Below are positions 4,100 through 54,640 of a DNA stretch of 64,000 nucleotides, one piece after another (position 1 is the stretch's first letter; the number at the start of each line of letters is the position of its first letter). The stretch lies in the NCBI GenBank assembly GCA_963718895.1, contig CAVRAG010000007.1, forward strand, positions 576,001-640,000, written 5' to 3'. The stretch is from an uncultured Nitrososphaerota archaeon (GTDB lineage Archaea > Thermoproteota > Nitrososphaeria > Nitrososphaerales > Gagatemarchaeaceae). Under the pieces are notes generated by a model. The model ran no database searches. It was not told the origin of the DNA and was given only the letters and a program-made list of their open reading frames with translations. The position numbers and the translations under genes were made by a program.

Positions 4100-4954
4100 C
4101 TATCGCTTCGCGCTCCGGATCACAAAGTCTATCATCTTCTTGGCGATCTTAGTCTTGGAAGCCGCCTGCGCCCCCTTGAACTCGACGGTGTTATTCACCT
4201 CGTGGACCACGTACCCGTTCTTCGACTCCATGACGTCGACGCCGAGTATGCCTCCCCCGACTGCGTGCGCCGCCTTGTGGATGATCTCTGTGAGCTCCTT
4301 GTCGGCCTTGAAGGAGGTGGTGGTCGCGCCCCGAGCTACGTTTGTCCTCCACTCGTTATCCGAGGCGTTCCTGTAGACCGTCGCGATTATCTCTTCCCCG
4401 GCGACTATGGCGCGTATGTCGCGCGGAGGTCGTTCCACGTACTCCTGGAGGTAGTACATGTGCTCTATGGGGTTCGGTATCGACTCCCTCAGCTCGACTA
4501 TGGTGTCGAGGATCTGGGGGTCCCTGGCGATACTGATCATCCTCCCCCAGCTCCCGACGAAAGGCTTCATCACGACCGGATAGCCGACGAGGTTCGCGGT
4601 CTGGTCGACCGACTCGGACGAGAGCGCGACGAAGGTCCTCGGAGTCGGGACCCCTGCCTTGGCCAGCACCATCGAGCTGATCAGTTTGTTCCCGCAGACG
4701 TCCGAGACGTTGGAGTTGTTTATCACGTAGGCGCCGAAGTTCTCCATGATTCTGGTCAGGAAGAGCGACCGGTAGTAGCTTATGCACCGCTGGAGCACGA
4801 CGTCCCCGAACCGGTTCTTTGCGTCCCGGTCGGTCAGCTCGAATGAGAGCAGTCTGCCGTCGACCAGCTCGGTGGTGTGGCCCGACTTCTTGGCTTCATG
4901 CGCCAGCCACTTCTCCTCGCCTCGTATCCTGTCGAAGACTATTGTGATCTTCAA
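4100..4954 (-). CDS. argX: Glutamate-LysW ligase ArgX (LysX paralogue)
   Basis: ATP-grasp KPFVGSWGR, QEY, RDIR, WRTNVARG, EVNNTVEF; follows argH-lysW. Confidence 0.85.
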   Translation of the reverse strand: MKITIVFDRIRGEEKWLAHEAKKSGHTTELVDGRLLSFELTDRDAKNRFGDVVLQRCISYYRSLFLTRIMENFGAYVINNSNVSDVCGNKLISSMVLAKAGVPTPRTFVALSSESVDQTANLVGYPVVMKPFVGSWGRMISIARDPQILDTIVELRESIPNPIEHMYYLQEYVERPPRDIRAIVAGEEIIATVYRNASDNEWRTNVARGATTTSFKADKELTEIIHKAAHAVGGGILGVDVMESKNGYVVHEVNNTVEFKGAQAASKTKIAKKMIDFVIRSAKR

Positions 4955-4955
4955 G

Positions 4956-5129
4956 CTACTCGCCCCAGTCCTCTTCGGCGACCTCGGCAGGCTTTAGCGT
5001 GACCTTGCCGCTCCCGAGCGAGGCGACCTCGTACTCGGCGCTGCACTCCTTGCACTGGACTATCTCGCCGACGATGGCGTCCTCTGGTATGGTTATGTCC
5101 GCGTCGCATTCTTCGCACTTTGCTATCAT
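4956..5129 (-). CDS. lysW: Amino-group carrier protein LysW (copy 2, 57 aa)
   Basis: MIAKCEECD...QCKECS...EVAEEDWGE*; SD GAGGTGA; not in ORF track. Confidence 0.96.
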   Translation of the reverse strand: MIAKCEECDADITIPEDAIVGEIVQCKECSAEYEVASLGSGKVTLKPAEVAEEDWGE

Positions 5130-6613
5130 CTTATCACCTCACCTTCGATCTTGCCTACCTGGGCTCTGAGTCGGCCGTCGGCCTCCTTCAGCGAACTCCG
5201 CGCGCGGGATATCCACGAAAGATTCTGCCTGAGGAAGCGGGAGTCCTTGAGGAGGAGACGTGGCACTGAGTGTGGGTTGGCCCCACCCGCTGTGCGCGTC
5301 AATTCAAGGGTTTTGAGTGCATCGAGCACGTTTCGAAGCTGGTCTTTATCAATCTTTAGCGGCCTCCCGGTCACGCGGGAGGAGATAGGGGACATCTCCT
5401 TCAGCGCAGCCTCCGCGAGGGTCGAGCCGCGCTCCAGGGCGGTCCTGACAAGCTCCCCGACGATCGCGTGGGCTTGGCGGAACGGGACGCCGTGCATCCT
5501 GACGAGGTGGTTTGCGAGCTCTGTCGCGGTCGACATGTCCCCGCTGACCGCGCTACGCAGCCTTTCGGGGTCGAATTTCAACGAAGAGAGCATCTCGGCC
5601 GTGAGCCGGGCCGAGGAGATCGTATCGTCTGTGGCCCTCCAGAGGTGGGGCGTGACCTCCTGCAGGTCCAGGTTGTAGGAGTTCGGCAGAGCCTTTGTGA
5701 TGGCGAAGGAGGCAGTCAGTTCACCCAGGACTGACCCGCACTTGGCCCTGACCGTCTCCGCGACTACTGGATTCTTCTTCTGAGGCATGATGCTGCTGGT
5801 CGCGCTGAACTCGTCGGCGACCTCCGCGAAGCCGAACTCCGAGGTGCTCCAGAGGATAACCTCCTCGGCCATCCGGCTCAGGTTCACCATCGCCATGGCT
5901 GCGACGGAGACGCTCTCAAGCGCGAAATCCCGGGAAGAGACCGCGTCCATGGCGTTCTCCGCCAGTCCCCCGAACCCCAGGAGCGAGGAGACGTATGCTC
6001 TGTCAATCCGGATCGACGTGCCCGCTAGGGCCGCGGCGCCCATGGGCGAGAGGTTCACCCGACCGTACGCCTCCTCGACCCGCTCAACGTCGCGCTGGAC
6101 CGCTTCGAAGTACCCTTGGAGGTGATGAGCGACCGTTACGGGCTGGGCGTGCTGGAGGTGAGTGTATCCCGGCATAAGAAGCCTGCCGTATATGCGGATG
6201 AGGTGGATGAGCGACCCCTGGACTCTGCAGAGGGCGGACAGAAGATCGAGGAGGCGATCCCGCGTCTCCATCCTGAGCGCCGTGGCCACCTGGTCGTTCC
6301 TGCTCTTGCCGAGGTTTAGGTAGCCCGCCTTATCCATCCCTATCGTCTTGATAGCTTCCTGTTCTATCATGTGATGTACATCCTCAGTGGTCTTGTCAAG
6401 TTCGAGATGGGATGGGAGTCCGCTGAGGAACCTCAATGACGCCGAGGCGACCACTGGGCTGACTTCCTTCGACCTGTACAGAGCGAGCATATGAGCCATG
6501 TTTATCGACGCGACGTGCTTCGTGAGGGGGGTGTCGAAGCCTATCGAGGAGATGAAGTCATTCGCTCTCTTGCTCGATCGCCTAACTCGACTTCCTCTCA
6601 GTATGTTTGGCAT
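5126..6613 (-). CDS. argH: Argininosuccinate lyase
   Basis: GKSRNDQVAT, PGYTHLQHAQP, SSIMPQKKNP. Confidence 0.96.
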   Translation of the reverse strand: MPNILRGSRVRRSSKRANDFISSIGFDTPLTKHVASINMAHMLALYRSKEVSPVVASASLRFLSGLPSHLELDKTTEDVHHMIEQEAIKTIGMDKAGYLNLGKSRNDQVATALRMETRDRLLDLLSALCRVQGSLIHLIRIYGRLLMPGYTHLQHAQPVTVAHHLQGYFEAVQRDVERVEEAYGRVNLSPMGAAALAGTSIRIDRAYVSSLLGFGGLAENAMDAVSSRDFALESVSVAAMAMVNLSRMAEEVILWSTSEFGFAEVADEFSATSSIMPQKKNPVVAETVRAKCGSVLGELTASFAITKALPNSYNLDLQEVTPHLWRATDDTISSARLTAEMLSSLKFDPERLRSAVSGDMSTATELANHLVRMHGVPFRQAHAIVGELVRTALERGSTLAEAALKEMSPISSRVTGRPLKIDKDQLRNVLDALKTLELTRTAGGANPHSVPRLLLKDSRFLRQNLSWISRARSSLKEADGRLRAQVGKIEGEVIR

Positions 6614-7817
6614 TTCTTCCTCTTTTGACTCCGGAAGACATCTTCGCGGCAATCCTAGATTGCAGACCCCAGAGCTCGATGAATCCGACAGCGGACGATT
6701 GGTCGAACGTGGACCCCTTCTGGTACGTTGCTTGACGGACCTTGTAGAGCGAGTAGGGTGAGGTCCGGCCTACTACGCGCAGTCCTCCCTTGTAGAGCTT
6801 CAGACGCACGCTCCCGGTGACTCTCCTCTGCGTTGTGTCTACGAAGCTGTCCAGCGCGGAACGAAGGGGGTCCATCCACAGGCCGGAGTAGACCAGCCAG
6901 GACCACTCCCTCTCGACGCCGACCTTGAACGCCAGCTCGTGCCTAGTGAGAACCAACTGCTCGAGGTCCCGGTGCGCCTCTATTATCGATACGGCGGCGG
7001 GCGCCTCGTAGACCTCGCGAGACTTTATCCCTACGAGCCGGTCCTCGATGTGGTCAATGATGCCGACTCCGTGCTTCCCCGCGAATGCGTTCACTTGACG
7101 AATCAGCGATAGACCGTCCTTTTCCACGCCGTTCAGCGAACGCGGTACGCCCTCGGCGAAGCCTATCTCTAGGTAGCCCGGAGTGTCCGGAGCGTCCTTC
7201 GGTAGCGTGACCCATTCGAACGCGCTTGCCGGAGGCTCGGCGTCCGGATCCTCCAGCGGCCCGCTCTCTATCGCCCGCCCCCAGAGGTTCTGGTCAATGC
7301 TGAAGATGGAGTTGGAGGGCTTCACCAATATGTTGTGCTTCTTCGCGTAGACCAGCTCTTGGTCCCTGCTCATGTTCCACTCCCTCACTGGCGCGATGAC
7401 ACGCAGAGATGGGTTGAGAGCCCGCACCGTGACGTCGAGCCTCACCTGGTCGTTGCCCTTCCCGGTGCATCCGTGCGACACGGCCGTGGCGCCCTCCTTC
7501 TCCGCGACCTCGACGAGCTTTGTCGCGATTAGCGGCCGTCCAAGGGCGGTAGCCAGGGGGTACTTCCCCTCGTACATCCCATTGGCACGGACCGAAGGCA
7601 GGACGTAGTTCTTGATGAACTCCTCCTTGACATCGATTTCGTAGTGCTTTACCGCGCCGACCGCCCTGGACCTCGCAGCGATTTCCTTGAAGTCCTCCTT
7701 CTGACCCAAGTCGAGCGTTAGCGTGATGACCTCGGCTCCGTACTTCTCTTGGAGCCAGCTGATGATTACGGAGGTGTCCAGGCCACCCGAGTAGGCGAGC
7801 ACTATCTTTTCTTTCAA
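6582..7817 (-). CDS. argG: Argininosuccinate synthase (probable leaderless TTG start)
   Basis: LAYSGGLDTS, HGCTGKGNDQVR, DRLVGIKSREVYEAP; TATAAAAA 25 nt upstream of TTG. Confidence 0.96.
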   Translation of the reverse strand: MKEKIVLAYSGGLDTSVIISWLQEKYGAEVITLTLDLGQKEDFKEIAARSRAVGAVKHYEIDVKEEFIKNYVLPSVRANGMYEGKYPLATALGRPLIATKLVEVAEKEGATAVSHGCTGKGNDQVRLDVTVRALNPSLRVIAPVREWNMSRDQELVYAKKHNILVKPSNSIFSIDQNLWGRAIESGPLEDPDAEPPASAFEWVTLPKDAPDTPGYLEIGFAEGVPRSLNGVEKDGLSLIRQVNAFAGKHGVGIIDHIEDRLVGIKSREVYEAPAAVSIIEAHRDLEQLVLTRHELAFKVGVEREWSWLVYSGLWMDPLRSALDSFVDTTQRRVTGSVRLKLYKGGLRVVGRTSPYSLYKVRQATYQKGSTFDQSSAVGFIELWGLQSRIAAKMSSGVKRGRNAKHTERKSS

Positions 7818-7890
7818 GCTTTTTTTGACCCTCGGTGAAATGTTTTTATAGATTTTGGCCATAAAGGACCCAAAATAGGGTGCTCTTGTT

Positions 7891-8616
7891 ACGAAATCGG
7901 TCACGCCGGGCGGGATAATCGCGGCTGTTAGAGACGAGATTGACTACGACCTCTCGCTGCAGGACGCTCTGGCAAGGGACTATGCAAACATCAGTGCGGT
8001 CTCCAGGATGATGCAGCCCCGGATTTCGGAGAAGCTGGGAAGAGAAGTGAACATCGAGAGCATCATCACCTCGATGAAACGCCTTCGGGGCGTCTACACG
8101 TTCGCGTCGGAGGAGATCAGGGAGGTGATAGGAGAGAGCGTGGTCAACGTGAGAACGAACGTCTCCAAGATCTCGGTCGAGAAGACGCGGAAGACCCTCG
8201 AGGCCGTGAGCGGCATGCTGGCCAGCCATCAGCACGATTTCCTGCATGTCTCCGAGAGCATCTCGTCGATTACGCTGATCTTCGACCAGAAGCTCCACAA
8301 GCGGATTAGGGACAGGCTCCCCGAATCGGTCATCCTGGAGGAGGGGGACGACTACGCGGCCATCATCGTCCAGAGCCCCATCAAGATCAGGACGACGCCC
8401 GGATGCCTGATCAACTTCTACAACCAGATAGCACGGAGGCACGTCAATATCGAGGACACGGTCAGCTGCCACACCGACACCATCATAGTCGTGAAGATGA
8501 AGGAGGTCGGAAAGGCCTTCACCGCGCTGACAGACCTGATATCGGAGGAGAGGAAGTGGCTCGAGTCGGGCGAGGCGGCGCGCCGCCAAGAGGCGCGAAT
8601 TCGTCAAAGTGTTTAA
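7891..8616 (+). CDS. Helical N-domain plus ACT-like protein, candidate amino-acid-responsive regulator (start uncertain)
   Basis: Frame open from 7879: KSVT...AAVRDEIDYDLSLQDALARDYANISAVSR; C-terminal TPG...NIEDTVSCHTD resembles ACT; divergent from argG, upstream of carA. Confidence 0.7.
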   Translation, partial: TKSVTPGGIIAAVRDEIDYDLSLQDALARDYANISAVSRMMQPRISEKLGREVNIESIITSMKRLRGVYTFASEEIREVIGESVVNVRTNVSKISVEKTRKTLEAVSGMLASHQHDFLHVSESISSITLIFDQKLHKRIRDRLPESVILEEGDDYAAIIVQSPIKIRTTPGCLINFYNQIARRHVNIEDTVSCHTDTIIVVKMKEVGKAFTALTDLISEERKWLESGEAARRQEARIRQSV

Positions 8617-8655: not shown

Positions 8656-9825
8656 ATGGAAAAAACTGAGGGGAGCAACCCGGCCGTCCTTCTTCTGGAG
8701 GATGGTTCGCTCTTCCTCGGAAAGGGCTTTGGTGCGGAGACGACGGCAGTCGCCGAGGTCGTGTTCACGACGGGTATGGTGGGTTATCCCGAATCAATGA
8801 CGGACCCGTCCTATGCTGGCCAGGTTCTGACGTTCACGTTCCCCCTCATAGGGAACTATGGGGTCGCGAGCATGCAGGACCTTGATGTGATGGGGCTGCC
8901 GAGGCAGTTTGAATCGGAGTCCATCAAGGTTAGCGGAATCGTGGTGCAGGAGAACTGCGAGCGCCCGAGCCACTGGGACTCCAGGAGCACGCTGTCGGAC
9001 TGGATGCGCCGCGAAGGCGTGCCTGGCATCAGCGGGGTGGACACGAGGGCGCTGGTCACGAAGCTCAGGGAGAGGGGAGTTATGATGGGCATCCTGGCCA
9101 ACGGGGTGGAACTCTCGTCCAAGAGCGAGCTGCTGAAGCTTCTCAAGCGGTCCACTAAGTACGGTTCTATCGACTTCGTGAGGAGGGTCTCCCCGAAGAA
9201 GGCGAAGGTCTACGGAGACTCCGAGAAGTCCGTGGTGCTACTCGACTGCGGGACGAAGCTCAGCATAATACGCAACCTTCTCACCAGGGGCTACAGCGTC
9301 GTGAGGGCGCCTTTCGACTACTCCTACTCTGACGTCATGAGCCACGATCCGGTCGGGGTCGTCGTTAGCAACGGTCCCGGAGATCCCGTGCTCTGCGGGG
9401 CGACGGTCGCGACGACGGCGAGACTCATCGAGTCCGACGTGCCCACCCTTGGTATCTGTCTCGGGCAGCAGCTCGTCGCCATCTCGCAGGGAGCGACCAC
9501 CTTCAAGCTGAAGTATGGTCACAGAGGGCAGAACAAGCCTATCGTCGACCTGACGTCGGGCAGAGGATTCGTCGCGAGCGAGAACCACGGGTACTCGGTC
9601 GACGGCGCGAGTCTCGGGGGAACCGACCTGAAGCCGTGGTTCGTCAACGCGGACGATAAGAGCATCGAGGGGCTCATCCACTCGAAGAGGTCCTGCATCT
9701 CGGTCCAGTTCCATCCCGAGGCATCACCGGGGCCCTACGACGCCCAGTTCGTCTTCGACAGGTTTGCCTCGCTCATAGAGGGCAGGAAGATGGTAGGTGA
9801 GAAAGTTCGAACCATGAGAACGTGA
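8656..9825 (+). CDS. carA: Carbamoyl-phosphate synthase small subunit
   Basis: EVVFTTGMVGY, TDPSY, SNGPGDP, GICLG, VQFHPEASPGP. Confidence 0.97.
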   Translation: MEKTEGSNPAVLLLEDGSLFLGKGFGAETTAVAEVVFTTGMVGYPESMTDPSYAGQVLTFTFPLIGNYGVASMQDLDVMGLPRQFESESIKVSGIVVQENCERPSHWDSRSTLSDWMRREGVPGISGVDTRALVTKLRERGVMMGILANGVELSSKSELLKLLKRSTKYGSIDFVRRVSPKKAKVYGDSEKSVVLLDCGTKLSIIRNLLTRGYSVVRAPFDYSYSDVMSHDPVGVVVSNGPGDPVLCGATVATTARLIESDVPTLGICLGQQLVAISQGATTFKLKYGHRGQNKPIVDLTSGRGFVASENHGYSVDGASLGGTDLKPWFVNADDKSIEGLIHSKRSCISVQFHPEASPGPYDAQFVFDRFASLIEGRKMVGEKVRTMRT

Positions 9826-12800
9826 AGAAAGCGATAGTCCTGGGAAGCGGGGCAATAAAGATCGGAGAAGCCGGCGAGAGCCGCTAAAGCGGCCGCCAAT
9901 TCGACTACTCCGGAAGTCAGTGCCTCAAGGCCCTGCGGGAAGAAGGCGTCAGTTCCCTTCTGGTCAACCCGAACATCGCTACCATCCAGACCGACTCGAG
10001 GATGGCCGACAAGATCTACTTCCTCCCTGTGAACCCGGACTTCGTCTCGGCGGTGATCGAGAAGGAGCGGCCCGACGCTATCATGCTCGGGTTCGGAGGT
10101 CAGACCGCCCTGAACTGCGGGGTGGGCCTGGCGAGGAGGGGGACGCTCGAGAAGTATGGTCTGAAGGTCCTCGGTACTCCGATCATCGGAATCGAGATAA
10201 CCGAAGACAGGGAGCTATTCAAGGAGGCAATGCAGGACGTCGGAATCTCCGTCCCCAGAAGCAAGCCGGCGTACTCTCTCGAGGACGCTCGGCGGATAGT
10301 CAAGGAGATAGGATACCCCGTCATCCTTAGGGTCGCGTACACCCTGGGAGGAAGAGGCGGTGGCGTCGCGCGGAACGACAGGGAGCTCTCGGAGATCGTC
10401 CAGAGGGGGCTCAACCTCAGCATCGCGCACCAGGTCCTGATCGAGGAGTACATCGGGCACTGGAAGCAGATCGAGTACGAGGTAATGCGTGACAGGAAGG
10501 AGAACAGCATGGTCGTCTGCAACATGGAGAACGTCCTGAGCATGAGGGTCCACACCGGCGACAACATCGTGGTCGCGCCCTCGCAGACGATAACCAACAG
10601 GGAGTACCACATGCTTCGCTCCCTCTCGCTCAAGGCCGCGGCGAGGTGCGGCATCCTGGGCGAGTGCAACATGCAGTTCGCTCTCGAGCCCGGCTCGGAG
10701 CGGTACAACGCGATCGAGATCAACGCCCGGCTCTCGAGGTCCTCGGCGCTCGCGTCAAAGGCCACAGGTTATCCCATTGCGTACATAGCAGCGAAGCTCT
10801 GTCTCGGATACTCACTGGAGGAGCTGAAGAACAAGGTCACCGGAGTGACCACCGCGCTCTTCGAGCCCTCGCTCGACTACGTCGTCGTGAAGATGCCGCG
10901 GTGGGACACCAAGAAGTTCGAGGGAGCCTCGAGGAACATCGGGACGGCGATGAAGTCCATCGGGGAGGTGATGGCGATAGGGAGGAACTTCGAGGAGGCC
11001 CTCCAGAAGGCCGCCAGGATGCTCAACATCAGGTACGACGGCGCCATAAGGAGGTTCGTGGAGACGGACGACCTCGCGGTCCTCAGGGAGAGGCTGAAGA
11101 ATCCCACCGACCAGATAATCTTCGACGTCGTGGAGGCGCTGATGGTGGGCCTCCCCGAAGACGAGGTGAGCAGGCTCAGCGTGATCGACCCCTGGTTCGT
11201 GAGCAAGCTCAAGAACATCGTCGAGATGTACGGTCGCATCACCAAGAGCGGGAAGGAGGGGATTGAGAGGGACCCGACGCTCGTCCGGGAGGCGAAGACC
11301 CTCGGCTTCTCCGACAAACAGATAGCCGCCGCCGTCGGGATGGACGAGGACCACGCGAGGTCGCTGAGGGAGAGGATGGAGATTAGGCCCTGCACGAAGG
11401 TGATAGACACGCTCGCCGCAGAGTGGCCGGCCCGCACCAACTACCTATACATGACGTTCAACGGGACCGAGGACGAGGCCAAGCCGACCAGCGCCAGGAA
11501 GGTCGTGGTCCTGGGGGCAGGCCCCTACAGGATCGGGAGCTCCGTCGAGTTCGACTGGGGTACCATGAACATGGCGTGGGCGCTGAAGGCCAACGGGGTC
11601 GAGGAGGTCGTGGTCGTCAACTGCAACCCCGAGACCGTCTCGACCGACTTCGACATGAGCGACAGGCTCTACTTCGAGGAACTGACCGTCGAGAGGCTGC
11701 TCACGATATACGCCAGGGAGAAGCCGATGGGCCTCGTCCTCTGCGTCGGGGGGCAGATACCGAACGACCTGGCCCTGGAGCTCGACCAGAACGGGGTCAG
11801 CATCCTGGGGACTACCGCGGAGTCCATCGAGCGGGCGGAGGACAGGGAGAGATTCAGCTTCCTGCTCGACAAGCTCGAGATCCCCCAGCCCAAGTGGGGG
11901 AGCTTCAGGTCGACCAAGCAGGCCAGAGACTTCTGCGACGAGGTCGGATACCCCGTGATAGTCCGGCCCTCGCACGTCCTGAGCGGGTCGGCAATGAGGG
12001 TGATCTGGGACAGCAGCGAGCTCGACACGTTCCTCGCGAAGGCCGTCGAGGTCAACCCCAACTATCCGGTCACGATAAGCAAGTTCATCGAGGATGCCAA
12101 GGAGGTCGAGGTGGACGGGATCTCGGACGGGGAGACGACCGTAATAGGCGCCATAATGGAACACGTGGAGAAGGCAGGGGTCCATTCCGGGGACGCCATA
12201 ATGACTATCCCGACCATAACCGTGAGCCCGGTCGCCAAGCAGAAGATGCGTGACTACAGCCGCTCCATCGCTCGAGAGCTCGGGGCGAAGGGGCCGTTCA
12301 ACATCCAGTACCTCGTCATAGGGGACGACGTGCAGGTCATCGAGTGCAACCTGAGGGCCTCCCGCTCGATGCCCTTCGTCTCGAAGGCCACCGGGATGAA
12401 CCTGATCGAGCTCGTCGCCCCGGTCCTCCTTGGAGGCAAGCTCACAGGCATTCAGGACGCGCCGGAGCCGAAGGGGTTCGCCGTGAAGGCGCCCCAGTTC
12501 TCTTTCATGCAGATGGAGGGTGCCGAGCCTACGGTCGGTGTCGAGATGCGGTCGACGGGCGAGGTCGCGTGCTTCGGTGACACTCTGCCCGAGGCCATGA
12601 GCAGGGCCTTGATCGCGTCGGGCCTCAGGATACCACAGAAGGGGGAGATCGGTATCGTGCTCGCGGACGAGAAGTCGGACATGAAGAGGATGAGGTCGCT
12701 CGTGGCGGGGTTCAGGGCGGCGGGCATAGACCTCGTGGCGACTCAGTCGCTCGCCAACGCCCTCGGACAGAGCCTCGCCAGGGCATCGACTACCGACGAG

Positions 12801-12992
12801 ATGGCAGAGATGCTGACGAGCGGCAAGGCGTCGTTCGTCATCTCGCTGAGCACAAATCTCAACAGGATGAGGAAGGACCTGTTCAAGGTCAGGAGGAAGG
12901 CCGTCGAGCTCCAGGTCCCGTTCCTGACGACGCTGGAGGAGGGCGAGGCGATCCTCATGTGCGTACGGTCCCCCCTGAAGAGCCTCATCTAG
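9822..12992 (+). CDS. carB: Carbamoyl-phosphate synthase large subunit, interrupted by a 21-nt candidate intron (1049 aa if spliced)
   Basis: GTG overlapping carA stop; VLGSGAIKIGEAGE|FDYSGSQ...VNPNIATIQTD; two ATP-grasp halves and MGS domain; ORF track starts only at 10002 because of TAA at 9885. Confidence 0.95.
9879..9899 (+). other. Candidate BHB/BHL-type mRNA intron in carB
   Basis: GGCG AG^A GCCGC TAAA GCGGC CGCC AA^T: 4-bp central helix, 3-nt bulges, 5-bp inner stem; removal restores GGC GAG TTC GAC (GEFD). Confidence 0.85.
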
Positions 12993-14254
12993 GACGGACG
13001 TGCGATAGGAAGTCCTTCTTCGGGACGAGCGTCTCAGTCCCGTCCTCGAGGTCCTTGAGCAGGAAGTTCCCCGAGTCGAGTTCCTTCCGTCCGACGAGGA
13101 GCACCCACCTGAAGCCAGTGGAGCTTGCGTCCTCCATCTGCTTCCTCAGGCTCTTGCCGCGGGGACCAACCTCGCTCCTCATTCCCTCTGCCCTAAGTCT
13201 GGCCAGGGCCTCGAGCGCGGTCTCCATCAGCGCAGGCTCAGTGTAGGCCACGTACACAGACACCGTCGGCCTGGCCTGCGGGGCCAGCGAGAGGGCTATC
13301 CTCTCGACACCCCCGGCCGCGCCGGTGGCCGAGAGCTCAGGTCTTCCGAAGAGCTTCGGCAGGACGTCGTAGCGCCCTCCTCCGCACAGGGACCCGAGGT
13401 CCGGGCGTGCCCCGTCCTTGACCTCGAACACTATCGCTGTGTAGTAGTCCAGGCCTCGGACGATGCTCAGGTTGTACTGGACGTTCGAGACTCCCCTCTG
13501 CCTGAGCGCGTCCCTGAGCTCGCCGAGACCCGTCGCGGACTCCAGTCCAGCCTCTTCCAGCCTGGTGAGGACCTTGATCGGGATGGCCCACGGTCCTCCC
13601 GAACTCGAGGAGGTCTTTCATCTCTCCCCGCCCGACCCCTTTGGCCTCGTACTCCCTGACGAGCTCCTCCTCGGTCTTCTTTCCGACCTTGTCGAGGGCC
13701 CTCATCATCTCGCTGGCCTTCTCCTCCGAGGTCACCTTGAGCGTCTTCCTGATGTACTCTTCGACGACCCTCCGGTCGCCCACGTGGAGGATGACCTCGC
13801 TCAGGCCCAACCTCTTGAAGAGGTTGTAGGAGAGGTCCATCACCTCGGCGTCGGAGTCTATCCTGGGATCTCCGAATATCTCGACGTCCCACTGGTAGAA
13901 CCAGCGGTATCTTGCGTGCTGCGGCTCGTCGTACCTCCAGACCCCGCCGTAGGAGGCGAGCTTGATCGGGGGCCTGAGCTCCTTCTTCCCAGCCACATAC
14001 CGGGTCATCCCGACTGTCAGGTCGAACCTGAGCCCGATGTCCCTCTCGCCCTTGTCCTTGAAGTGGTAGATCTGCTCATCGACCTGGGACCCGCTCTTGG
14101 CCCTCAGGACAGAGAGCGTCTCGAGGGGGGCCGGCTCCATCGACCTGAAGTTGTAGGCCCTGACGAGCTCGTCGAAGGCCGTCCTTATCCGGGTGTGGAG
14201 ATCGTACTCGTCCGGATCGATGTCCCGGATGCCCCGCGGCAGGGAGAGGTCCAT
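12985..14254 (-). CDS. hisS: Histidyl-tRNA synthetase; 1-nt frameshift near 13575
   Basis: LPRGIRD, LRFDLT, WRYDEPQHARYRWFYQ, IVRGLDYY, GGGRYD, anticodon domain. Confidence 0.95.
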
Positions 14255-22075: not shown

Positions 22076-25000
22076 TTGGCCGTAATCACCCGCAAGCTCT
22101 CGGAGCTCTTTGAGGAGTTCCTCAGGACGTGGCAGGACAAGAGCGGGTCCTACAAGTACAGGGAGAGGATCGCCCAGCTAGCGGCTACCGGAGACAAGTC
22201 GGTCGTGGTCGACTACGAGGACATCATCCAGTTCAACACTGACCTTGGGGAGAGGCTGCTGTCGCAGCCCGACGAATCGCTCAAGGAGTTCAAGATGGCG
22301 GCGTTCGAGGTCCTCAGCACCGAGAACTCCTCGTACGCCGGTCAGGTGAAGAACGCGCTCACGGTCAGGATAAGGGGTATAACCGACAAGGTCTCCCTGC
22401 GCAAGGTGAACACCTCCCACCTCGACAAGATGATCGCGGTCGCAGGGATGGTCGTCAGGTCCTCCGAGCTCAGGCCTCTGCTGACGGACGGGGCCTTCGT
22501 CTGTCCCAACGGGCACGTCACGAAGGTGATTCAGGAGGGCGTCGTCATCAAGAGGCCGCTGAAGTGCGAGGGGTGCGAGGAGGTGAGGAACCTGGAGCTC
22601 GACGAGAAGAGGAGCACCTTCATCGACAGCCAGATCCTGAGGGTCCAGGAGCTCCCCGAGGAGCTGCCTCCGGGCCAGCTGCCGCGGTTCTTCGACGTGG
22701 ACGTCGTGGGAGACATCGTAAACACCGCGAGGCCGGGCGACAGGATCGTCCTCAGCGGGGTCGTCAGGGCGGAGATCGACATCACACCGGGGCAGGCCAG
22801 GACGAGGGTCTTCCACTCGAAGATCGACAGCAACCTGATAGAGGTCGCGGGCAAGGACCCGGGCCAGATACAGATCACGAAGGAGGACGAGTTCCTGATC
22901 AGGTCCGTCGCCGCGAACCCGGACGCCTACCAGAAGCTCATCAAGTCGGTCGCGCCGGCAATCCTCGGCCATGAGGCGGTTAAGGAGGCGATCCTCCTGC
23001 TCCTCGTAGGCGGCCCGCAGACAATACTCCCGGACGGGACGAAGCTGAGGGGGGACATCAACGTCTTCGTGGTCGGGGACCCGGGCGTCGCCAAGTCGGA
23101 GATGCTGAAGTTCGCAGCCCAGGTCGCCCCGAGAGGCATGTTCGCCTCGGGGAAGGGATCAACAGCCGCGGGGCTCTCGGCCGCAGTCATCCGGGAGAAG
23201 AACACGTTCATGCTGGAAGCAGGGGTGGTGGTTTTAGCTGATCAGGGGATAGCGTGTGTGACGGAGGATATGGAATTCTACACGGGACAGGAGCTCCTGT
23301 CTGCGGGAGAGCTATGGAAGCGTTGCGGAGGCAAGACATATCTCACAAAGTCCGGGCGTGAAGGCAAGGGGGGATACATCCCCGTGACCGCCTATGATAG
23401 CGCGAACCGGATTGACACGCCTTCGCTGGCCTTCTCAATGCTCCGGAAGAGACACCGCGGCCAGATCGTCAAGCTGACCCTCGCCTCTGGCCTCACTCTC
23501 GAGGTCACACCAGAGCACCTTCTGAGAAGGACCACGGCGTACAAGAACAAGTGGGTGCAAGCCGAATCGGTCAGGCCTGGGGACGAACTAAGGGCGCCCG
23601 TCAAGCTCTTCAGACCGGCGGCGACCCTGAACATATCTGCTGCAGAGAGCTACTCGATAGGGTGTGTCTACGGAGACGGCTGGTTGTCGAGAAATGCGAT
23701 AACCATCTCGCAGTCCAAAGTCGATGGAGACGTTATTCAGGCTGTGCAGCGAAACCTTCCCGACACATTTGCCTTTTATGACAAGGGCGAGAGACCCAGG
23801 GAAATCGGACGATACAAACTGATAGAGAGGTCAGTCCAACTGTACACTGCAAACCGCGATTTCGTCAGGCGTACGCATCTGCTCCTTCGTAGCCCATCCA
23901 CCGACAACACCCTGATGCTCGACGACTCGGCACTGTGGGCCTTTCTCGCCGGCGTCTTCGACACCGATGGAGATTTCAACAAGTCAAAGGGTAAGATTAC
24001 AGCCGCCAGAATCTACCCGACCAAATCCGAGCACGAACTAGCCGTCCTTCTCTACTGCCTGAGGCGACTGGGAGTATACGGGAGAATACATGGGATGCGC
24101 GATTCCATCCCTGTCATTCAGATTTCAGGTGGCGACATCACAAGGTTTATCGCCGGAATCAAGAGTTTCAGCGTCAAGGTGGCAAGGGAGGGGCCAGACT
24201 CGCTCCTGCTCGACCACAAGGGAATCAGGAGCCTTCGGAGGGGAGCCGAAAAAGTCGTGCACATCGAAAGAGAATCATATGACGGCTACGTCTACGACCT
24301 CAGTGTCGGCCGCTACCACAACTATGAATCCAGTCTGGTTTACATTCACAACTGCATAGACGAGTTCGATAAAATGAAGGAAGACGACCGCAGCGCCCTG
24401 CACGAGCAGATGGAACAGCAATCCTATCATCCCTCAACCGAAATTCTGCTGGCGGACGGAAGGAAAGTCAAGATCGGAGAGTTCGTCGAGGGCGCGTTCA
24501 GGGCGACCGGTGCAAGGACGGTCCAGGGCAGGGATTGTGAGGTCGCCGTTCTCGGGCGACCCGCCGACGTCTACTCAGCAGACCTGAACAACGGGAAGAT
24601 CTCAAGAGTGTCTATCGGCCGGGTCAGTCGCCATCGAGCTCCCTCCTCCTTCGTTAGGATAAGCTACTCCAACGGGAGGTCGGTTCTGGTGACCCCCGAG
24701 CACCCAGTCTTCGTCTACCGCGGAGACGGTCTAGCTACTTCGAGGGCGGATGCGCTGGAAGTCGGAGACTTCGCTCCAGCGCCTAGGCTCATTCCGAACT
24801 CTTCGGTCCCCGTGGTGCTTTCGAATCACGTAGGAACCAGGCTAAGCAAGGAGATAACGCAGCCTGCGACGCTCTCGCTCAAGACGGCTAGGATCCTCGG
24901 GTACCTGATTACCGAGGGGAATTTCTACGAAGGCTCCTCGGTCGAGGTTGACTTCACCAATCTGGACCCAAGGCTAATCGACGAGATGCGCGGCCTGATG

Positions 25001-26792
25001 CGCGACGAGTTCCAGATTTCTCCGACCCTCAGAAGATCAGAGGGCAGGGATCCGGGCCTCCGGTACGTCTCGAAGACCCTCCACGCTTGGCTCCGGTTGA
25101 ACTTCCCCGAGATGGTCCAGAAGGCCCGGCAGAAGAGGGCCCCGGCGAAGATCCTCGGAGCTTCGGTCGAGCACATCAACGCGTTCCTTGGCTCGGCTTT
25201 CCTCGGAGATGGTAGTGTCGAGTCTGAGGCCGTCTGCTATCGCACCGCCTCGGCTGGGCTGGCGGAAGACTACCAGGACCTCCTCCTAAAGCTCAGGGTG
25301 GCTTCGAGGATAAACTTCGATAGTTTCAACGACTCCTTCAAAGTCTACATTACGGGGGATTCGCTCGAGAGGTTCTTCACGATCATCGTGCACCCTCTCG
25401 ACCCGAGATTCACCACAATCAGGAAACTAGTCGAGAGGAGCAAGAGGAACAACAGGAAGCACGACGTGTTACCCACTGGCGTTGCAAGACTCTACATCTC
25501 TCTCCTCAAGCGGTTCGGCCTGAGATACAGCGGCGGGTTCCAGAGGCATCTCTCACTTGGGCACGGGATTACCGTCTCCGTGATGAGCAAGAACCTTGAA
25601 TCGATTGAAGAGCAGCGCGAGAACGTTCTTCGCGCGCTCGACGACAGCGCCTGTACCCTCCGCGAATTCCGCACCCGATCAGGATGGTCTCAGCAGCGGA
25701 TTGCAGACCTTGCAGGCATTCCACGTGGCGTCATCGACTATGCGGAGAGAGGCGGCTATCCTGAAGAGGAAAGGAGGAAGATTGTGGAGAATGCTCGAAT
25801 AGCACTCCGGCGCGAGTTTGCATCTGATGAGGCGATCTCCTACCTCAAGAACCTCATGGGACTGAGATTCCTCAGGGTCACAGGTGCCGAGCGCGTCGAC
25901 AACACAGGGCCTGACAAGGTCAATTGGGTATACGACGTCACCGTCGAGCCAAGCCACAACTTCGTCTCGGCAGCAACAATTCTCCACAACACGATAACGA
26001 TTGCCAAGGGGGGAATCTACGCGACGCTCAACGCCCGGACCTCCATCCTTGCGGCTGCCAACCCGATATTCGGCAAGTACGACCCGTACAAGAACCTGAC
26101 CGATAACATCACGCTCCCCATCCCCCTCCTAACTAGGTTCGATCTGATATTCGTGGTCAAGGACACCCCGACGCCCGCTCAGGACGAGAAGCTCGCCACC
26201 CACATCCTTGACGTGCACAGGAAGAGGGGGTACACGGACCCGCCTCCCGTCCAGTTCGACCTGCTGAAGAAGTACCTCACCTACGCCAAGAAAATCTCCC
26301 CGACCCTCACCATGGAGGCCCAGAACCGCCTGAAGGAGTACTACCTCCAGCTCAGGAGGTCCGTGGCCGAGGGGCAGATAGGGGCGACCCCGAGGACGCT
26401 CGAGTCGCTGATCCGGCTCGCCAGCGCCAAGGCCAGGCTCATGCTCAGGGACATCGTCCTCGAGGAGGACGCGCTCGACGGCCATCTCGCTCATGAACAG
26501 GATGGTCGAGGACGTCCTCACAGACACGGAGACCAAGACCAAGGCGGACTTCGGCATACTCCTCGGGCAGCCCGCCGGCGAGAGGGGGAAGCTCTCGACC
26601 TCGATGGAGATCTTCAGGACCATGGAAGGTCAGGACAAAAAGCCCGTCGAGCTCAAGCTCTTCAGGGACGAGCTCGTCAAGAGCGGAAGGTTCAAGGGAG
26701 ACGACGAGATCGACAAGATGATCCAGAAGCTCATCAAGGAGGGGATAATCTGGGAGAACAAGCCCGGGTTCTACAGGCGCGTCCAGGCCTAG
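22076..26792 (+). CDS. mcm: MCM replicative helicase with two inteins; 1-nt frameshift near 26475
   Basis: Zn finger, QELPE, GDPGVAKS, CIDEFDKM, NARTSILAAANP, RFDL, TPRTLES. Confidence 0.97.
23255..24352 (+). mobile_element. Intein 1 in MCM (366 aa) with LAGLIDADG endonuclease
   Basis: ADQGIA|CVTED...TPEH...IGCVYGDG...FLAGVFDTDG...VYDLSV...IHN|CIDE. Confidence 0.95.
24422..25990 (+). mobile_element. Intein 2 in MCM (523 aa, Ser1) with LAGLIDADG endonuclease and HTH
   Basis: MEQQ|SYHP...VTPEHP...LGYLITEG...FLGSAFLGDG...VYDVTV...LHN|TITIAKGG. Confidence 0.95.
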
Positions 26793-26806
26793 AGTAGGCG
26801 AGCCCC

Positions 26807-40632: not shown

Positions 40633-41281
40633 ATGACCGGGCCGAGAGTGACAGTGGTACGGCATCCGATGGTTCTTGAGCAGCTCACCCTCGCCAGGGA
40701 CAAGCGGACGAACCAGATCGCTTTTCGCAAGGCAATCTTCAGATTAGGTAGACTGATGGCCCACGAGTTTCTCCGGACGCTCGAGACCCAGGAGTTTCCC
40801 GTCGAGACGCCTTTCGGGAAGACGACCGGCTACAAGGTGAAGGGGAACGACAAGATTGAGATCATATTGATACTCGCGCGCGTCGATCCCGTTCGTCGAC
40901 GGGATGTACAAGGAGCTGCCGATGGCGCGGACCGGGATCATCAGCGCCTGGAGGGGGAACGCGCCAACGTTTCCCATCGAGGTCAACTACTCCAAGATTC
41001 CCGACATACATCCAGATGACATCGTGATCATCGCAGACCCAATGCTCGCGACAGGCCATACGCTGCTTAAAGTCGCGAAGAAGACCATGGAGAGGGGGAA
41101 GCCGAGACGGCTCGTGTTCTTCTCCGTCATATCGACGAAGAAGGGCATTGACTATGTGGGAAAGGAGTTCCCGGAGGCCGAGTTCTATACCTGCGCGATC
41201 GACCCGAAGGTCGACGAGCGCGGCTACATCGTGCCCGGCCTAGGTGACGCGGGGGACCGAGCGTTCGGGTCACCGCACTGA
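40633..41281 (+). CDS. upp: Uracil phosphoribosyltransferase; 1-nt frameshift near 40876
   Basis: VETP, ILRA, DPMLATG, GYIVPGLGDAGDR. Confidence 0.92.
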
Positions 41282-44575: not shown

Positions 44576-45121
44576 TTGGAGAGCCAGGAAAAGGCACCAG
44601 AGGCCTTGGACGCGCTGCTCAGGGGCGAGAAGGTCGTCGTCGAGGACAGCGGCAGGTTCGGCGAGCTTGAGCAGGTCGGCTACGGCGAGAGGGAAGGAAA
44701 GAGGCTGGTTCTCAAGGACTACGAAGCTCTCTATTTACTATTCAGCGGCAGGCTGAACCTGAAGGACGACCGAGGCAGACGGGTCACGTTCAACCAACTG
44801 GCTGAGGTCAGCCAGGCGCGGGCGGGAGACGCCTGGACCAAGTTCATGATCTACAGAGACCTGAGGTCGAGGGGGTACATAGTGAAGGATGGGTTCGGGT
44901 TCGGGACCGACTTGAGAGTCTACGAGAGAGGCGATTTTCCCGAGAAGGCCGCGAAGTTCGTCGTCTTCGCGCTCGATGAGGGCACCGAGAGGGAGGTCGA
45001 GGAGCTGAGCGATTCGGTACGCCAGATAGTGAAGATGGGCAAGGAGGCGATAGTCGCGGTCATAGAGAGGAGGGGAGAGGTCATCTACTACAAGGTCGGA
45101 AGGGCGAACTTCCACAAGTAG
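44576..45121 (+). CDS. endA: tRNA splicing endonuclease subunit (probably structural beta subunit)
   Basis: EALYL, YRDLRSRGYIVKDGFGFGTDLRVYERG, GEVIYY; catalytic His position appears replaced by Ala. Confidence 0.86.
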   Translation: MESQEKAPEALDALLRGEKVVVEDSGRFGELEQVGYGEREGKRLVLKDYEALYLLFSGRLNLKDDRGRRVTFNQLAEVSQARAGDAWTKFMIYRDLRSRGYIVKDGFGFGTDLRVYERGDFPEKAAKFVVFALDEGTEREVEELSDSVRQIVKMGKEAIVAVIERRGEVIYYKVGRANFHK

Positions 45122-52654: not shown

Positions 52655-53789
52655 TCAGAGGCAGACCGTCTCGATCATGCGTCTGTAGACAGACCCCGCT
52701 CTCTTGATCTGCCGGACCGGAGCGTATTCATCGACCGTGTGGGCCTGTCTGACGCTGCCGGGACCCAGGACGATCGTTGGCGTCCCGAGCTCGGAGTAGA
52801 CGGGCGCCTCGGTGCCGTAGGGCGCGACCCCTGATCCCGCGGCGGTCAGCGACTCGGTCAACCTCACGACCTCGGCAGCCCGGGGGACGGAGAGCGCGGG
52901 CGTCTCGTAGAGGACCTCCACCCTCGCCTTGAATTCTTTGTCCTTTCTGTGGAGTTCCCCGATGACGGAGTTCAGCTCATGGAGGACTTCCCTGGTCCCG
53001 ACCGCCGGTATCAGCCTCGAATCGATGGTGAGCTCACAGGAACCGGGAGTTACGTTGCTCTTCGTCCCTCCGTTTATGACGGTGGGGGTCAGAATGGTGT
53101 GCCCGAGGTCTGGGTCTCTGGCTGACGCAAGCCTCGCTCGGACGGTTCTGAGGGACTCTCAGGAAGAGCGCGCACTTCTCGATGGAGTTTATTCCAAGCG
53201 ACGGGTCTCCGGCGTGGGCGCTGTGGCCATCGAAGATGACCCGGCACGTCAGACCCCCCCTGTGCGCTCTCACGACCTTCATCTCGGTCGGCTCCCCGAC
53301 GACGCCGCAGCGGGCCCTGACCTGTCTCAGGCTCCCGTCGTGGACGAGGGCCTCGAGCCCGTCGAACCCGACCTCCTCTCCGGCCGTCGCGACGAAATTG
53401 AGGGAGCGCTTCAGCCGTCTCCCCTTCGTGGAAGCGATAGCGGCGAGCATAGCGGCGAGACCGGACTTCATGTCTGCTGACCCTCTCCCGTAGAGCCTCC
53501 CGTTGCTGACTCTCGCCTCGAAGGGCGGGGACGACCAGGCTCCCGGGTCTTCGACCGGCACCACGTCCATGTGACCGGCAAGAAGGAGGCCCGGAGGACT
53601 CTCGCCGAACGTAGCCATGAGGTTGGAACGGCCCTCGGCGAACCTCCGAAGCTCGACCTCGGCACCCTCGATGTGAAGGTCATGGAGGAAGTCTCCGATG
53701 AATCGCGCGCACTCCTCTTCGTTTCCAGGGGGGGCCCCCGTATTGAAGGATATCAGCGAAGACGCGAGCTCCAGAAGCTCCATGCTCAT
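52655..53789 (-). CDS. M20-family ArgE/DapE-like deacylase; frameshift near 53158
   Basis: GHMDVVP, YGRGSADMK, GEE, GEPT, GTEA, GPGSVRQAHTVDE. Confidence 0.86.
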
Positions 53790-53859
53790 CGAGATGGGGC
53801 CATCCTAAATGAAGTTCGCGGAAGCAAGCTTATTGCACAGGTCCGGCGCCGGGACCCGG

Positions 53860-54640
53860 ATGGAGCGCGCCGTCCGCCTGAAAGGGGTAGTCTTGGAGTA
53901 TTCGGGGACGACGGCTCTCCGAGGCATCGACTGGGTCGTCGGGGGAGGCGAGAGCTGGGCCGTGATAGGTCCGAACGGTGCGGGGAAGACGAGCCTGATG
54001 AGCATAATCGACGGCTATCAGTGGCCGTCAAAGGGCGAGGTCGAGATCCTCGGGAACAGGTTCGGGGAGACCGACCTAAGAGACCTCCGCGCCCGTATCG
54101 GCATGGTCAGCGCTTACCTCGAGGGCTGGATACCCGGGAGACGAGAAGGTCCTAGACCTGGTCATGAGCGGGAAGTACGGCTCGACTAGGATATGGAGGA
54201 AGGCGGAGCCGGCGGAGGCCCGAAGGGCCGCCTCTCTCTTGGAGGGCCTCGGGTGCGGCGCTCACGTCGGGAAGATGGTCAAGGAGCTCTCCCAGGGTGA
54301 GAGACAGAAGGTGATGATCGCGAGGGCTCTGATGGCGAACGCCGGCCTGCTCCTCCTTGACGAGCCCTGCGAGGGCCTGGACCTGGGGGCGCGCGAGCAG
54401 TTCCTCGACGGCCTCTCGAGGCTCGCAAGGCGGGGCCGCACGGCCATGGTCTATGTGACCCACCGCACCGACGAGATTCCCTCGGGCTTCACCCACGCGC
54501 TCCTCCTCAAGGCTGGGAGGGTCCTCGCGTCTGGGCCCATCGAGGACACCCTGACGGGGAGGAACCTCAGCCTCTGCTTCGACGTGAAAGTGAAGGTCGA
54601 TACCGTGAACGGCAGGTACTACACCATAGTCTCCGGCTAG
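53860..54640 (+). CDS. ABC ATPase (ModF/YlmA-like); frameshift near 54140
   Basis: GPNGAGKT, LSQGE, LDEPCEGLD, VTH. Confidence 0.85.

Follow-up and report, generated by a model that had tools for sequence, protein, structure and literature searches.

A putative bulge-helix-bulge type intron within the carB coding sequence of Nitrososphaeria

Introduction

How can a full-length CarB protein be made from a gene whose reading frame is broken, 57 nt after its start, by a short insert containing an in-frame stop codon? The question is raised by the carB gene of an uncultured, non-ammonia-oxidizing Nitrososphaerota archaeon, which lies in a 64,000-nt stretch of contig CAVRAG010000007.1 (assembly GCA_963718895.1); this stretch is referred to here as the window, and all coordinates are positions within it. 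An earlier examination of the letters of the window (the original prediction) had proposed that the 21 extra nucleotides at 9879-9899 are a tRNA-type intron removed from the carB mRNA by the splicing endonuclease EndA. On the evidence reported here, we consider it very likely that they are an archaeal intron of the bulge-helix-bulge (BHB) type, in the relaxed HBh' form, situated inside the carB coding sequence.

Results

An interrupted carB reading frame

The carB gene overlaps the end of carA, with the carB start codon GTG beginning at 9822 and the carA stop codon TGA occupying 9823-9825 (overlap GTGA). Read from 9822, the carB frame translates as VKKAIVLGSGAIKIGEAGE, then SR*SGRQ, then FDYSGSQCLK, i.e., the motif IGEAGE|FDYSGSQ is interrupted by 21 nt (9879-9899). 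When the read-through translation of carB (with TAA taken as X) was compared by BLASTP with an intact CarB homologue of 1050 aa (P0006), the two aligned at 85% identity with a single clean 7-residue gap at SRXSGRQ. The 996-aa open reading frame (ORF) that follows has its first start at ATG 10002, ends at 12992 and covers positions 59-1051 of the 1052 in the TIGR01369 profile; positions 1-58 are missing from it. The original prediction had described an insert, bearing an in-frame TAA, that splits the N-terminal motif of CarB, as well as a loss of 53 residues when the gene is called from ATG 10002, and the sequence, its translation, the ORF start and the missing profile positions all agree with that description. 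An Rfam scan of the window returned nothing at gathering score.

Inserts at the same site in related genomes

GTDB species genomes (one per species) were scanned once with the residues encoded by 9900-11021 as the query, and the best 80 of 456 relatives were taken. The junction was readable in 78 sequences, namely the window itself and 77 of these 80 loci; loci L011 and L015 start downstream of the junction, and L056 starts inside an insert of the same type. The closest relative among the best 80 of 456 was Ca. Gagatemarchaeum stordalenia (L001), with which the window is colinear over 13 kb at 85.7% nucleotide identity. The carB gene is under purifying selection, in that CarB has 97% amino-acid identity with L001 (over 374 residues), compared to this nucleotide identity of 85.7%.

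An insert was present at the exact Glu|Phe (E|F) junction in 66 of the 78 sequences and absent from the other 12, and the intron-less homologues have exactly the junction that is predicted. The inserts range from 20 to 52 nt, comprise 50 distinct sequences and in 27 of 66 cases have a length that is not a multiple of three. A length of 21 nt was the most frequent (32 sequences), followed by 20 (7), 22 (6), 26 (5) and 24 nt (4); lengths of 23, 25 and 31 nt occurred in two sequences each, and 29, 30, 33, 38, 48 and 52 nt in one each. The 21-mer of the window is identical in L001, L003 and L004, and variants occupy the same site across 65 other assemblies from different projects. Two contigs of isolate CTOTU28945 (L055:1318-1387 and L069:955-1024) each hold a carB with an identical 26-nt insert, which represents either a duplicated gene or redundant contigs.

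An in-frame stop codon lies inside 60 of the 66 inserts; the other six, all of 20 nt, cause a frameshift, and a stop is reached 15-18 codons further on. Among inserts of a length divisible by three (3n), all contain an in-frame stop (39/39 sequences, 27/27 distinct ones), whereas in shuffled sequences 7.9 of the 27 did so on average and 15 at most. This suggests selection against translating the unspliced message into a CarB with an extra peptide in its nucleotide-binding loop, and the stops may indicate a regulatory use. Judged from these sequences, no carrier would be able to make CarB by reading through. Stop-codon readthrough or recoding was ruled out by the inserts that are not multiples of three. 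A repeat or mobile element was rejected as well; the 21-mer occurs only once in the window even when as many as 3 mismatches are allowed, and a search of the 864 kb of window and loci with a covariance model (R1) brought up nothing more than two chance-level matches (E 0.6-1).

The nearest CarB proteins among the 120 best database matches came from metagenome-assembled genomes of Nitrososphaerota (Thaumarchaeota). The N-terminus was missing from 33 of the 120, which start at various internal codons, and the carB gene calls of carrier genomes were 40-60 residues short, in keeping with the shortening by gene callers that had been anticipated for the window.

Coding constraint on the exons and the splice register

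We take exon 1 to be translated and under selection at the protein level. Over the 45 nt before the insert, the pairwise differences among the 66 carriers were 0.087/0.002/0.446 per codon position, and the peptide [LIV]xLGSGA[IL]KIGEAGE is kept. Codon choice in the exons differed between carriers and intron-less sequences. The Gly18 codon is GGC or GGT in 66/66 carriers, whereas only 3 of the 12 intron-less sequences use either (GGA 5, GGG 4, GGC 3); the Gly15 codon is GGA in 63/66 carriers and in 0/12 intron-less sequences; and the Tyr codon is TAC in 66/66 as opposed to 7/12. A distal helix joining the two exons (h, described below) is fully paired (5/5) in 64/66 carriers and in 0/12 intron-less sequences. 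The synonymous exon sites that build h and the central helix H were constrained only where the insert is present. These counts are phylogenetically non-independent, but the intron-less sequences do not form one group, being spread over at least four positions of the tree.

The position of the two cuts was examined by removing the insert at shifts of -4 to +4 and asking for G-E-F-D-Y in the product. The register lying two bases 3' of each H strand restored GEFDY in 66/66 sequences; shifts -1 and -2 did so in 58, shift +1 in 2, and all others in 0. By the known rule, EndA cleaves each bulge behind its second base, and the best register agrees with this without presupposing it. The original prediction had used the rule to place cuts (AG^A, AA^T) that rejoin G-E-F-D, and these proved to be the sole register giving GEFDY in all 66.

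Predicted fold of the insert and its flanks

The minimum free energy (MFE) fold of 9855-9920 has an energy of -22 kcal/mol (z = -1.96), and 7 of 200 shuffles fold as well. It holds the central helix H (GGCG/CGCC), an open AGA bulge, the intronic hairpin h' (GCCGC/GCGGC with a UAAA loop) and the distal exon-exon helix h (CGGAG/CUCCG). All of the helices, the bulge and the loop that had been claimed for 9862-9913 are present and contained in this fold (Table 1). The arrangement is that of the relaxed HBh', or bulge-helix-loop (BHL), form: H and h' enclose the 5' bulge, and the second predicted cut falls within a loop, two bases past the 3' strand of H. C9872/U9901 and C9871/C9902 are unpaired, and the exon-exon helix lies 5 nt away on the 5' side and 7 nt away on the 3' side. 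A generic screen for HBh' elements whose removal joins open frames was set aside as not discriminating: at the thresholds used it gave 1353 other matches, and only 47 at the carB site across the 66 carriers.

Conserved architecture and covariation

The architecture of each insert was read from the two junctions, free of any alignment. A common plan was found in 66/66 sequences: exonic GG[C/T]G, A-R^[A/T] (the caret marks the predicted cut), stem, loop, complementary stem, CGC[C/T/A], and A-N^T. The 5' bulge is A-R-A in 64 sequences and A-A-T in 2. The last two bases of the intron are AA in 45, AG in 13 and AT in 8, with a T following in all 66. Helix H has all four pairs, with CGC[C/T], in 49/66. 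Hairpin h' has 2-11 contiguous pairs (2 only in L070, which has a long mismatched stem, and at least 3 in the other 65), and its stems vary by lineage (e.g., GCCGC/GCGGC, GCUGC/GCAGC, GUCUC/GAGAC, GUUAG/CUAAC, GCCAG/CUGGC, GUCG/CGAC and longer ones).

These changes preserve pairing. Among the 28 ungapped 21-nt cases, 95.4% of cells were paired, and there were 46 double-change cells compared to 16.6 in shuffles, a value reached by 0/500 shuffles. For all 66 sequences (58 distinct), 96.2% of cells were paired, with 93 double-change cells versus 28 +/- 9.6 in shuffles (0/500 reached it), and slid-partner controls were 21-62% paired; this larger alignment was fitted to the model and hence leans towards structure, and the ungapped alignment and the alignment-free reading concur with it. 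In h', 4/5 pairs have compensatory changes on both sides. The RNAalifold consensus recovered h', 3/4 pairs of H and the distal helix. In the MFE folds of the 58 distinct sequences, h' and the distal helix each formed in 56, and H (with three or four of its pairs) and an open 5' bulge were each seen in 55. The original prediction had looked to relatives for inserts at the same site with covarying stems, and these were found in 66 of the 78 sequences, with the 93 double-change cells in h'.

Distribution and history of the insert

A FastTree phylogeny of 79 CarB sequences was used to place the insert. It was present in 14/15 members of a Gagatemarchaeaceae-like clade, 37/39 Nitrososphaeraceae, 10/10 of the Nitrosotenuis group, 3/3 of a Nitrosomirales-containing group and 2/2 of another deep pair. 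It was absent from a five-member clade comprising Nitrosocaldus, HR04, L041 and the Nitrosopumilales-labelled pair L043/L059, and also from the pair L060/L077, the single rows L020 and L049, and the Nezhaarchaeales outgroup. The tree of 79 rows requires at least five changes. P0006, which has no insert, is sister to L008, which has one of 23 nt, and L028 and L031, likewise without an insert, are nested among intron-bearing Nitrososphaera; on the tree these three look like precise intron losses. The intron looks old, common to the Gagatemarchaeaceae-like non-ammonia-oxidizers, Nitrososphaeraceae, Nitrosotenuis and Nitrosomirales-like lineages, and lost precisely several times. Because this is a single-gene tree made by a fast method and rooted on a single outgroup, any order of gains and losses read from it is provisional.

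One database protein from a different clade may be related to this pattern. P0116, a CarB of 1033 aa with 70% identity, opens with MGQSRSEKQAKAGRTSRK followed by FDYSGSQ, and it looks like a gene call that runs through exon 1 in a shifted frame and then through a stop-free insert of non-3n length. Given this start, the intron may extend to further lineages.

The splicing endonuclease

The window encodes a catalytic-type EndA subunit (Table 1), whose best solved relative is 1a79, the alpha4 enzyme of M. jannaschii (E = 3e-24). An (alpha-beta)2 EndA occurs in Thaumarchaeota and cleaves relaxed HBh'/BHL motifs, a loop-less (alpha-beta)2 enzyme still removes an HBh' intron, inefficiently, and the L1 loop is conserved across TACK archaea (PMC5829648). 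In another study, the Thaumarchaeota genomes analysed have 107 noncanonical tRNA introns (PMC8450103). We assume from this literature that the organism of the window has an EndA of broad specificity, a property of (alpha-beta)2 or epsilon2 enzymes with the specific loop (L1/CSL). ARAGORN reported no tRNA gene either in the window or in 60 of the loci, a surprising outcome for about 0.7 Mb of archaeal sequence; the program may have missed tRNA genes that are rich in introns or atypical in some other way.

Neighbouring genes

Arginine-pathway genes lie beside carAB on the opposite strand, encoding argininosuccinate synthase (6585-7904, minus), argininosuccinate lyase (5129-6652, minus) and a LysX/ArgX-type ATP-grasp ligase (4103-4954, minus), with an amino-acid kinase and an aminotransferase beyond them. 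Elsewhere in the window, an MCM helicase ORF of 1573 aa (22076-26797, plus) contains intein sequences; Pfam places LAGLIDADG_3 and two stretches of Intein_splicing between its MCM P-loop and lid domains.

Several genes of the window are split. The single-base indels that had been noted outside carB were seen in a gene for an argD-type aminotransferase (about 1700, minus), in upp and in hisS (13340-13431, minus), for which L001 has an intact ORF of 422 aa. The genes for an ABC ATPase and an M20 peptidase are each in two pieces (53809-54637, plus, and 52658-53789, minus, respectively). This suggests either an error-prone long-read assembly or real pseudogenes. An HBh'-like site in the broken upp gene (40796-40820) was unrelated to the break, which is a single-base frameshift near 40870 on the plus strand.

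Table 1. Coordinates of the carAB genes, the predicted intron elements and the EndA gene in the window.
Feature	Position	Strand	Basis
carA (carbamoyl-phosphate synthase small subunit)	8656-9825	+	Pfam CPSase_sm_chain and GATase; TIGR01368, 418 bits
carB exon 1	9822-9878	+	GTG and 18 codons, the last two GGC GAG (…IGEAGE); aligns with residues 1-19 of intact P0006
Helix h (distal, exon-exon), 5' strand UCGGAG	9862-9867	+	MFE fold, RNAalifold consensus; 97.9% of cells paired
Central helix H (4 bp), 5' strand GGCG, exonic (Gly codon and first base of Glu)	9873-9876	+	MFE fold, relatives
5' three-nucleotide bulge AGA, predicted cut 9878/9879	9877-9879	+	Unpaired in MFE fold
Predicted intron, 21 nt, in-frame TAA at 9885-9887	9879-9899	+	Same-site inserts in relatives
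Intronic hairpin h', GCCGC/UAAA loop/GCGGC (9880-84 with 9889-93)	9880-9893	+	Covariation
Helix H, 3' strand CGCC, intronic	9894-9897	+	MFE fold, relatives
3' unpaired AAU within larger internal loop, predicted cut 9899/9900	9898-9900	+	MFE fold, relatives
carB exon 2 (FDYSGSQ… to stop)	9900-12992	+	Open frame; TIGR01369 match
Helix h, 3' strand CUCCGG	9908-9913	+	MFE fold, RNAalifold consensus
EndA, tRNA-intron endonuclease, catalytic-type subunit, 181 aa	44576-45121	+	PF02778 tRNA_int_endo_N and PF01974 tRNA_int_endo; TIGR00324, 69.1 bits (cutoff 59.6)

Discussion

Proposed splicing of the carB mRNA

The comparative evidence leads us to regard the carB intron as real and deeply conserved; what goes beyond chance, as we read the sequences, is that it falls precisely within a motif conserved in all homologues and that it recurs across 65 other assemblies. 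In the carAB transcript, the exonic GGCG would pair with the intronic CGCC to form the 4-bp helix H, h' would close the 3-nt 5' bulge, and the 3' site would lie in a loop two bases past H, with the distal UCGGAG/CUCCGG exon-exon helix clamping the whole motif. EndA, with its catalytic subunit encoded at 44576-45121, would cut two bases 3' of each H strand (AG^A and AA^U), and an RNA ligase, presumably RtcB, would join GGC GAG to TTC GAC. Ligation would restore IGEAGEFDYSGSQ and a CarB of 1049 residues, and the junction peptide expected from spliced carB would be IGEAGEFDYSGSQCLK. On the unspliced mRNA, translation would end at the intron TAA after 21 codons. We infer that EndA cleavage and ligation take place and that CarB cannot function unless its mRNA is spliced; the carriers, which include soil and ammonia-oxidizing archaea, probably must splice carB mRNA for arginine and pyrimidines.

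Several points weigh against this account. Splicing is proposed here from sequence comparison, and the relatives examined were only the best 80 of 456. The z-score of the fold is modest, and the bare geometry (a 4-bp helix and a 3-nt bulge next to a hairpin with 5 bp or more) is commonplace, with 31 sites on the two strands of the window compared to a mean of 29.8 in block-shuffled sequence. Since the geometry is as frequent in shuffles, motif rarity was not used as evidence. In the canonical hBHBh' form, a 4-bp helix separates two 3-nt bulges on opposite strands, and an outer helix of 2 bp or more closes each of them; the carB motif departs from this form, its 3' site having no adjacent closing helix. 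Helix H has 3/4 pairs, with CGCA and a G.A mismatch, in 17/66 sequences, and RNAalifold favours a 3-bp H with the first G paired instead to the Phe wobble base. Neither H nor the distal helix has double-sided compensatory changes; both show one-sided changes (G-C/G-U) and conservation only, and they vary on one side only because their positions are coding. Counts over the 66 carriers are phylogenetically non-independent. As for the enzyme, residues 12-115 give a gapless alignment between the EndA of the window and the alpha4 enzyme of M. jannaschii, with no evident insertion like the Crenarchaea-specific loop (D34-A46 in the P. aerophilum enzyme; PMC2724299), and a family scan of 65 window ORFs found neither an EndA beta subunit nor RtcB.

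Alternative explanations

The alternative that survives best, although improbable, keeps removal at the level of RNA and assigns it to an activity other than EndA, i.e., another endonuclease/ligase pair or some unknown processing that recognises the hairpin. It would be consistent with a 3' site in a loop and not in a canonical bulge, with a window EndA in which, compared to the strict alpha4 enzyme, the specific loop is not seen as an insertion, and with the imperfect H of the 17 carriers. However, Thaumarchaeota process many noncanonical tRNA introns (PMC8450103). The only register that works in 66/66 is moreover that of EndA. The symmetric geometry, with a 4-bp helix, cuts two bases 3' of each strand and a 5' bulge closed by h', is the signature of an EndA substrate.

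Slightly less probable still is translational bypassing, or ribosome hopping, in which ribosomes would take off at the Glu codon and land before TTC. Ribosomes translating phage T4 gene 60 skip a short stretch of its coding sequence that holds a hairpin and a stop, and the carB gap is likewise short, with a stable hairpin and a stop shortly after a conserved codon. Bypassing nevertheless requires matched take-off and landing codons, which occur in 0/66 cases: no insert ends in GAR, their last three bases being TAA, CAA, AAA, CAG, TAT, AAG, TAG, CAT or AAT. The stop in the window lies two codons past Glu (AGC CGC TAA) and not directly after it, and hopping would leave the 4-bp exon-intron helix, the fixed 3-nt bulge and the fixed two-base 3' offset unexplained.

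It is very improbable that the insert is not removed at all and that a truncated CarB is made from an internal start such as ATG 10002, with the upstream 19 codons serving as a leader or small ORF. Gene callers do give long ORFs from internal starts in all carriers, but these starts are not conserved (L46, V43, M39, M61, ...). A protein of this kind would be without TIGR01369 positions 1-58 and without the glycine-rich GSGAIKIGEAGEFDYSG, which is present in every full-length homologue among the matches listed. Exon 1 retains the exact N-terminal peptide of CarB with variation at third positions only, and the stretch between the insert and the internal Met is conserved as protein too.

A pseudogene, insertion scar or assembly artefact peculiar to the window is scarcely credible, in spite of the single-base frameshifts in argD, upp and hisS, given that variants at the same site in 65 other assemblies from different projects differ in sequence, which makes a common artefact implausible, and that carB is otherwise intact and under purifying selection, with a covarying stem and coding-type variation in exon 1.

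Comparison with known systems

A close precedent for the putative carB intron is the cbf5 pre-mRNA intron of Crenarchaeota, which Watanabe reportedly described in 2002; Yoshinari is said to have found, in 2006, relaxed motif forms in the cbf5 intron that are cleaved by a hetero-oligomeric splicing endonuclease. The two differ in that cbf5 encodes an RNA-modification protein whereas carB encodes a central metabolic enzyme, and in that the carB intron belongs to Nitrososphaeria/Thaumarchaeota, lies close to the start codon and has a stop in every 3n version; the carB case is also put forward from sequence comparison. In the 2009 paper by Yokobori, the cbf5 intron has a patchy distribution with gains and losses, as the carB intron does, Cenarchaeum and Nitrosopumilus have 0 cbf5 introns in the table, and archaeal pre-mRNA splicing is described as not confirmed for genes other than cbf5 (PMC2738675). 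In a 2020 paper, the cbf5 intron is the only one reported besides that paper's own case in a 5' untranslated region (5'-UTR) (PMC7714728), and the mRNA-intron items found in a 2025 paper are three cbf5 entries in its reference list (PMC12397907). The original prediction knew of no intron in carB. Our literature search, which did not take in subscription-journal papers and supplements, brought up no description of an intron in carB, or in any protein-coding gene of Thaumarchaeota; the papers of apparent relevance dealt with cbf5, tRNA or rRNA.

The 2020 case, a BHB intron in the 5'-UTR of Haloferax volcanii HVO_1309, is likewise an EndA substrate within an mRNA (PMC7714728). It is euryarchaeal and lies in an untranslated region, whereas the carB insert interrupts the reading frame, so that splicing would decide whether CarB is made. 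The noncanonical HBh'/BHL tRNA introns of Thaumarchaeota and Crenarchaeota share with carB the relaxed motif class and the presumed enzyme. They differ in their host RNA; since that of carB is an mRNA, helices H and h must be built from codons.

Outside archaea, the non-spliceosomal removal of a small mRNA intron from HAC1/XBP1, by a structure-specific endonuclease and a tRNA-type ligase, changes the frame or product. The proposed carB splicing is similarly non-spliceosomal, whereas HAC1/XBP1 uses IRE1 and a twin stem-loop motif and is stress-regulated. It is conceivable, if rather unlikely, that the carB intron controls, through splicing, how much carbamoyl-phosphate synthase is made, and that archaea thus have their own counterpart to the unconventional mRNA splicing of HAC1/XBP1. 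We raise this reading because the intron lies 57 nt from a carA-coupled start, is clamped by a conserved exon-exon helix and has a stop in 39/39 of the 3n inserts. If it were true, the level of full-length CarB would be set by how far EndA and ligase outcompete translation of the unspliced message, and arginine and pyrimidine synthesis would be tied to tRNA-processing capacity across most Nitrososphaeria, ammonia oxidizers included.

Significance

Archaeal protein-coding introns are known essentially from cbf5 in Crenarchaeota, together with one 5'-UTR case (PMC7714728, PMC2738675, PMC12397907). A carB gene called short may be flagged as truncated or as a pseudogene, distorting metabolic reconstructions of arginine and pyrimidine synthesis. 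More introns in archaeal mRNAs might be found in practice by looking for the combination seen in carB, i.e., a conserved break at the same site, lengths that are not 3n and a hairpin that covaries. With a second family, the splicing of mRNA by the tRNA machinery would no longer be a one-gene curiosity. The carB intron would place such splicing in a core metabolic gene of several Nitrososphaeria families, among them globally important ammonia oxidizers, and, with several precise losses visible, would let the origin, persistence and loss of an intron family be studied.

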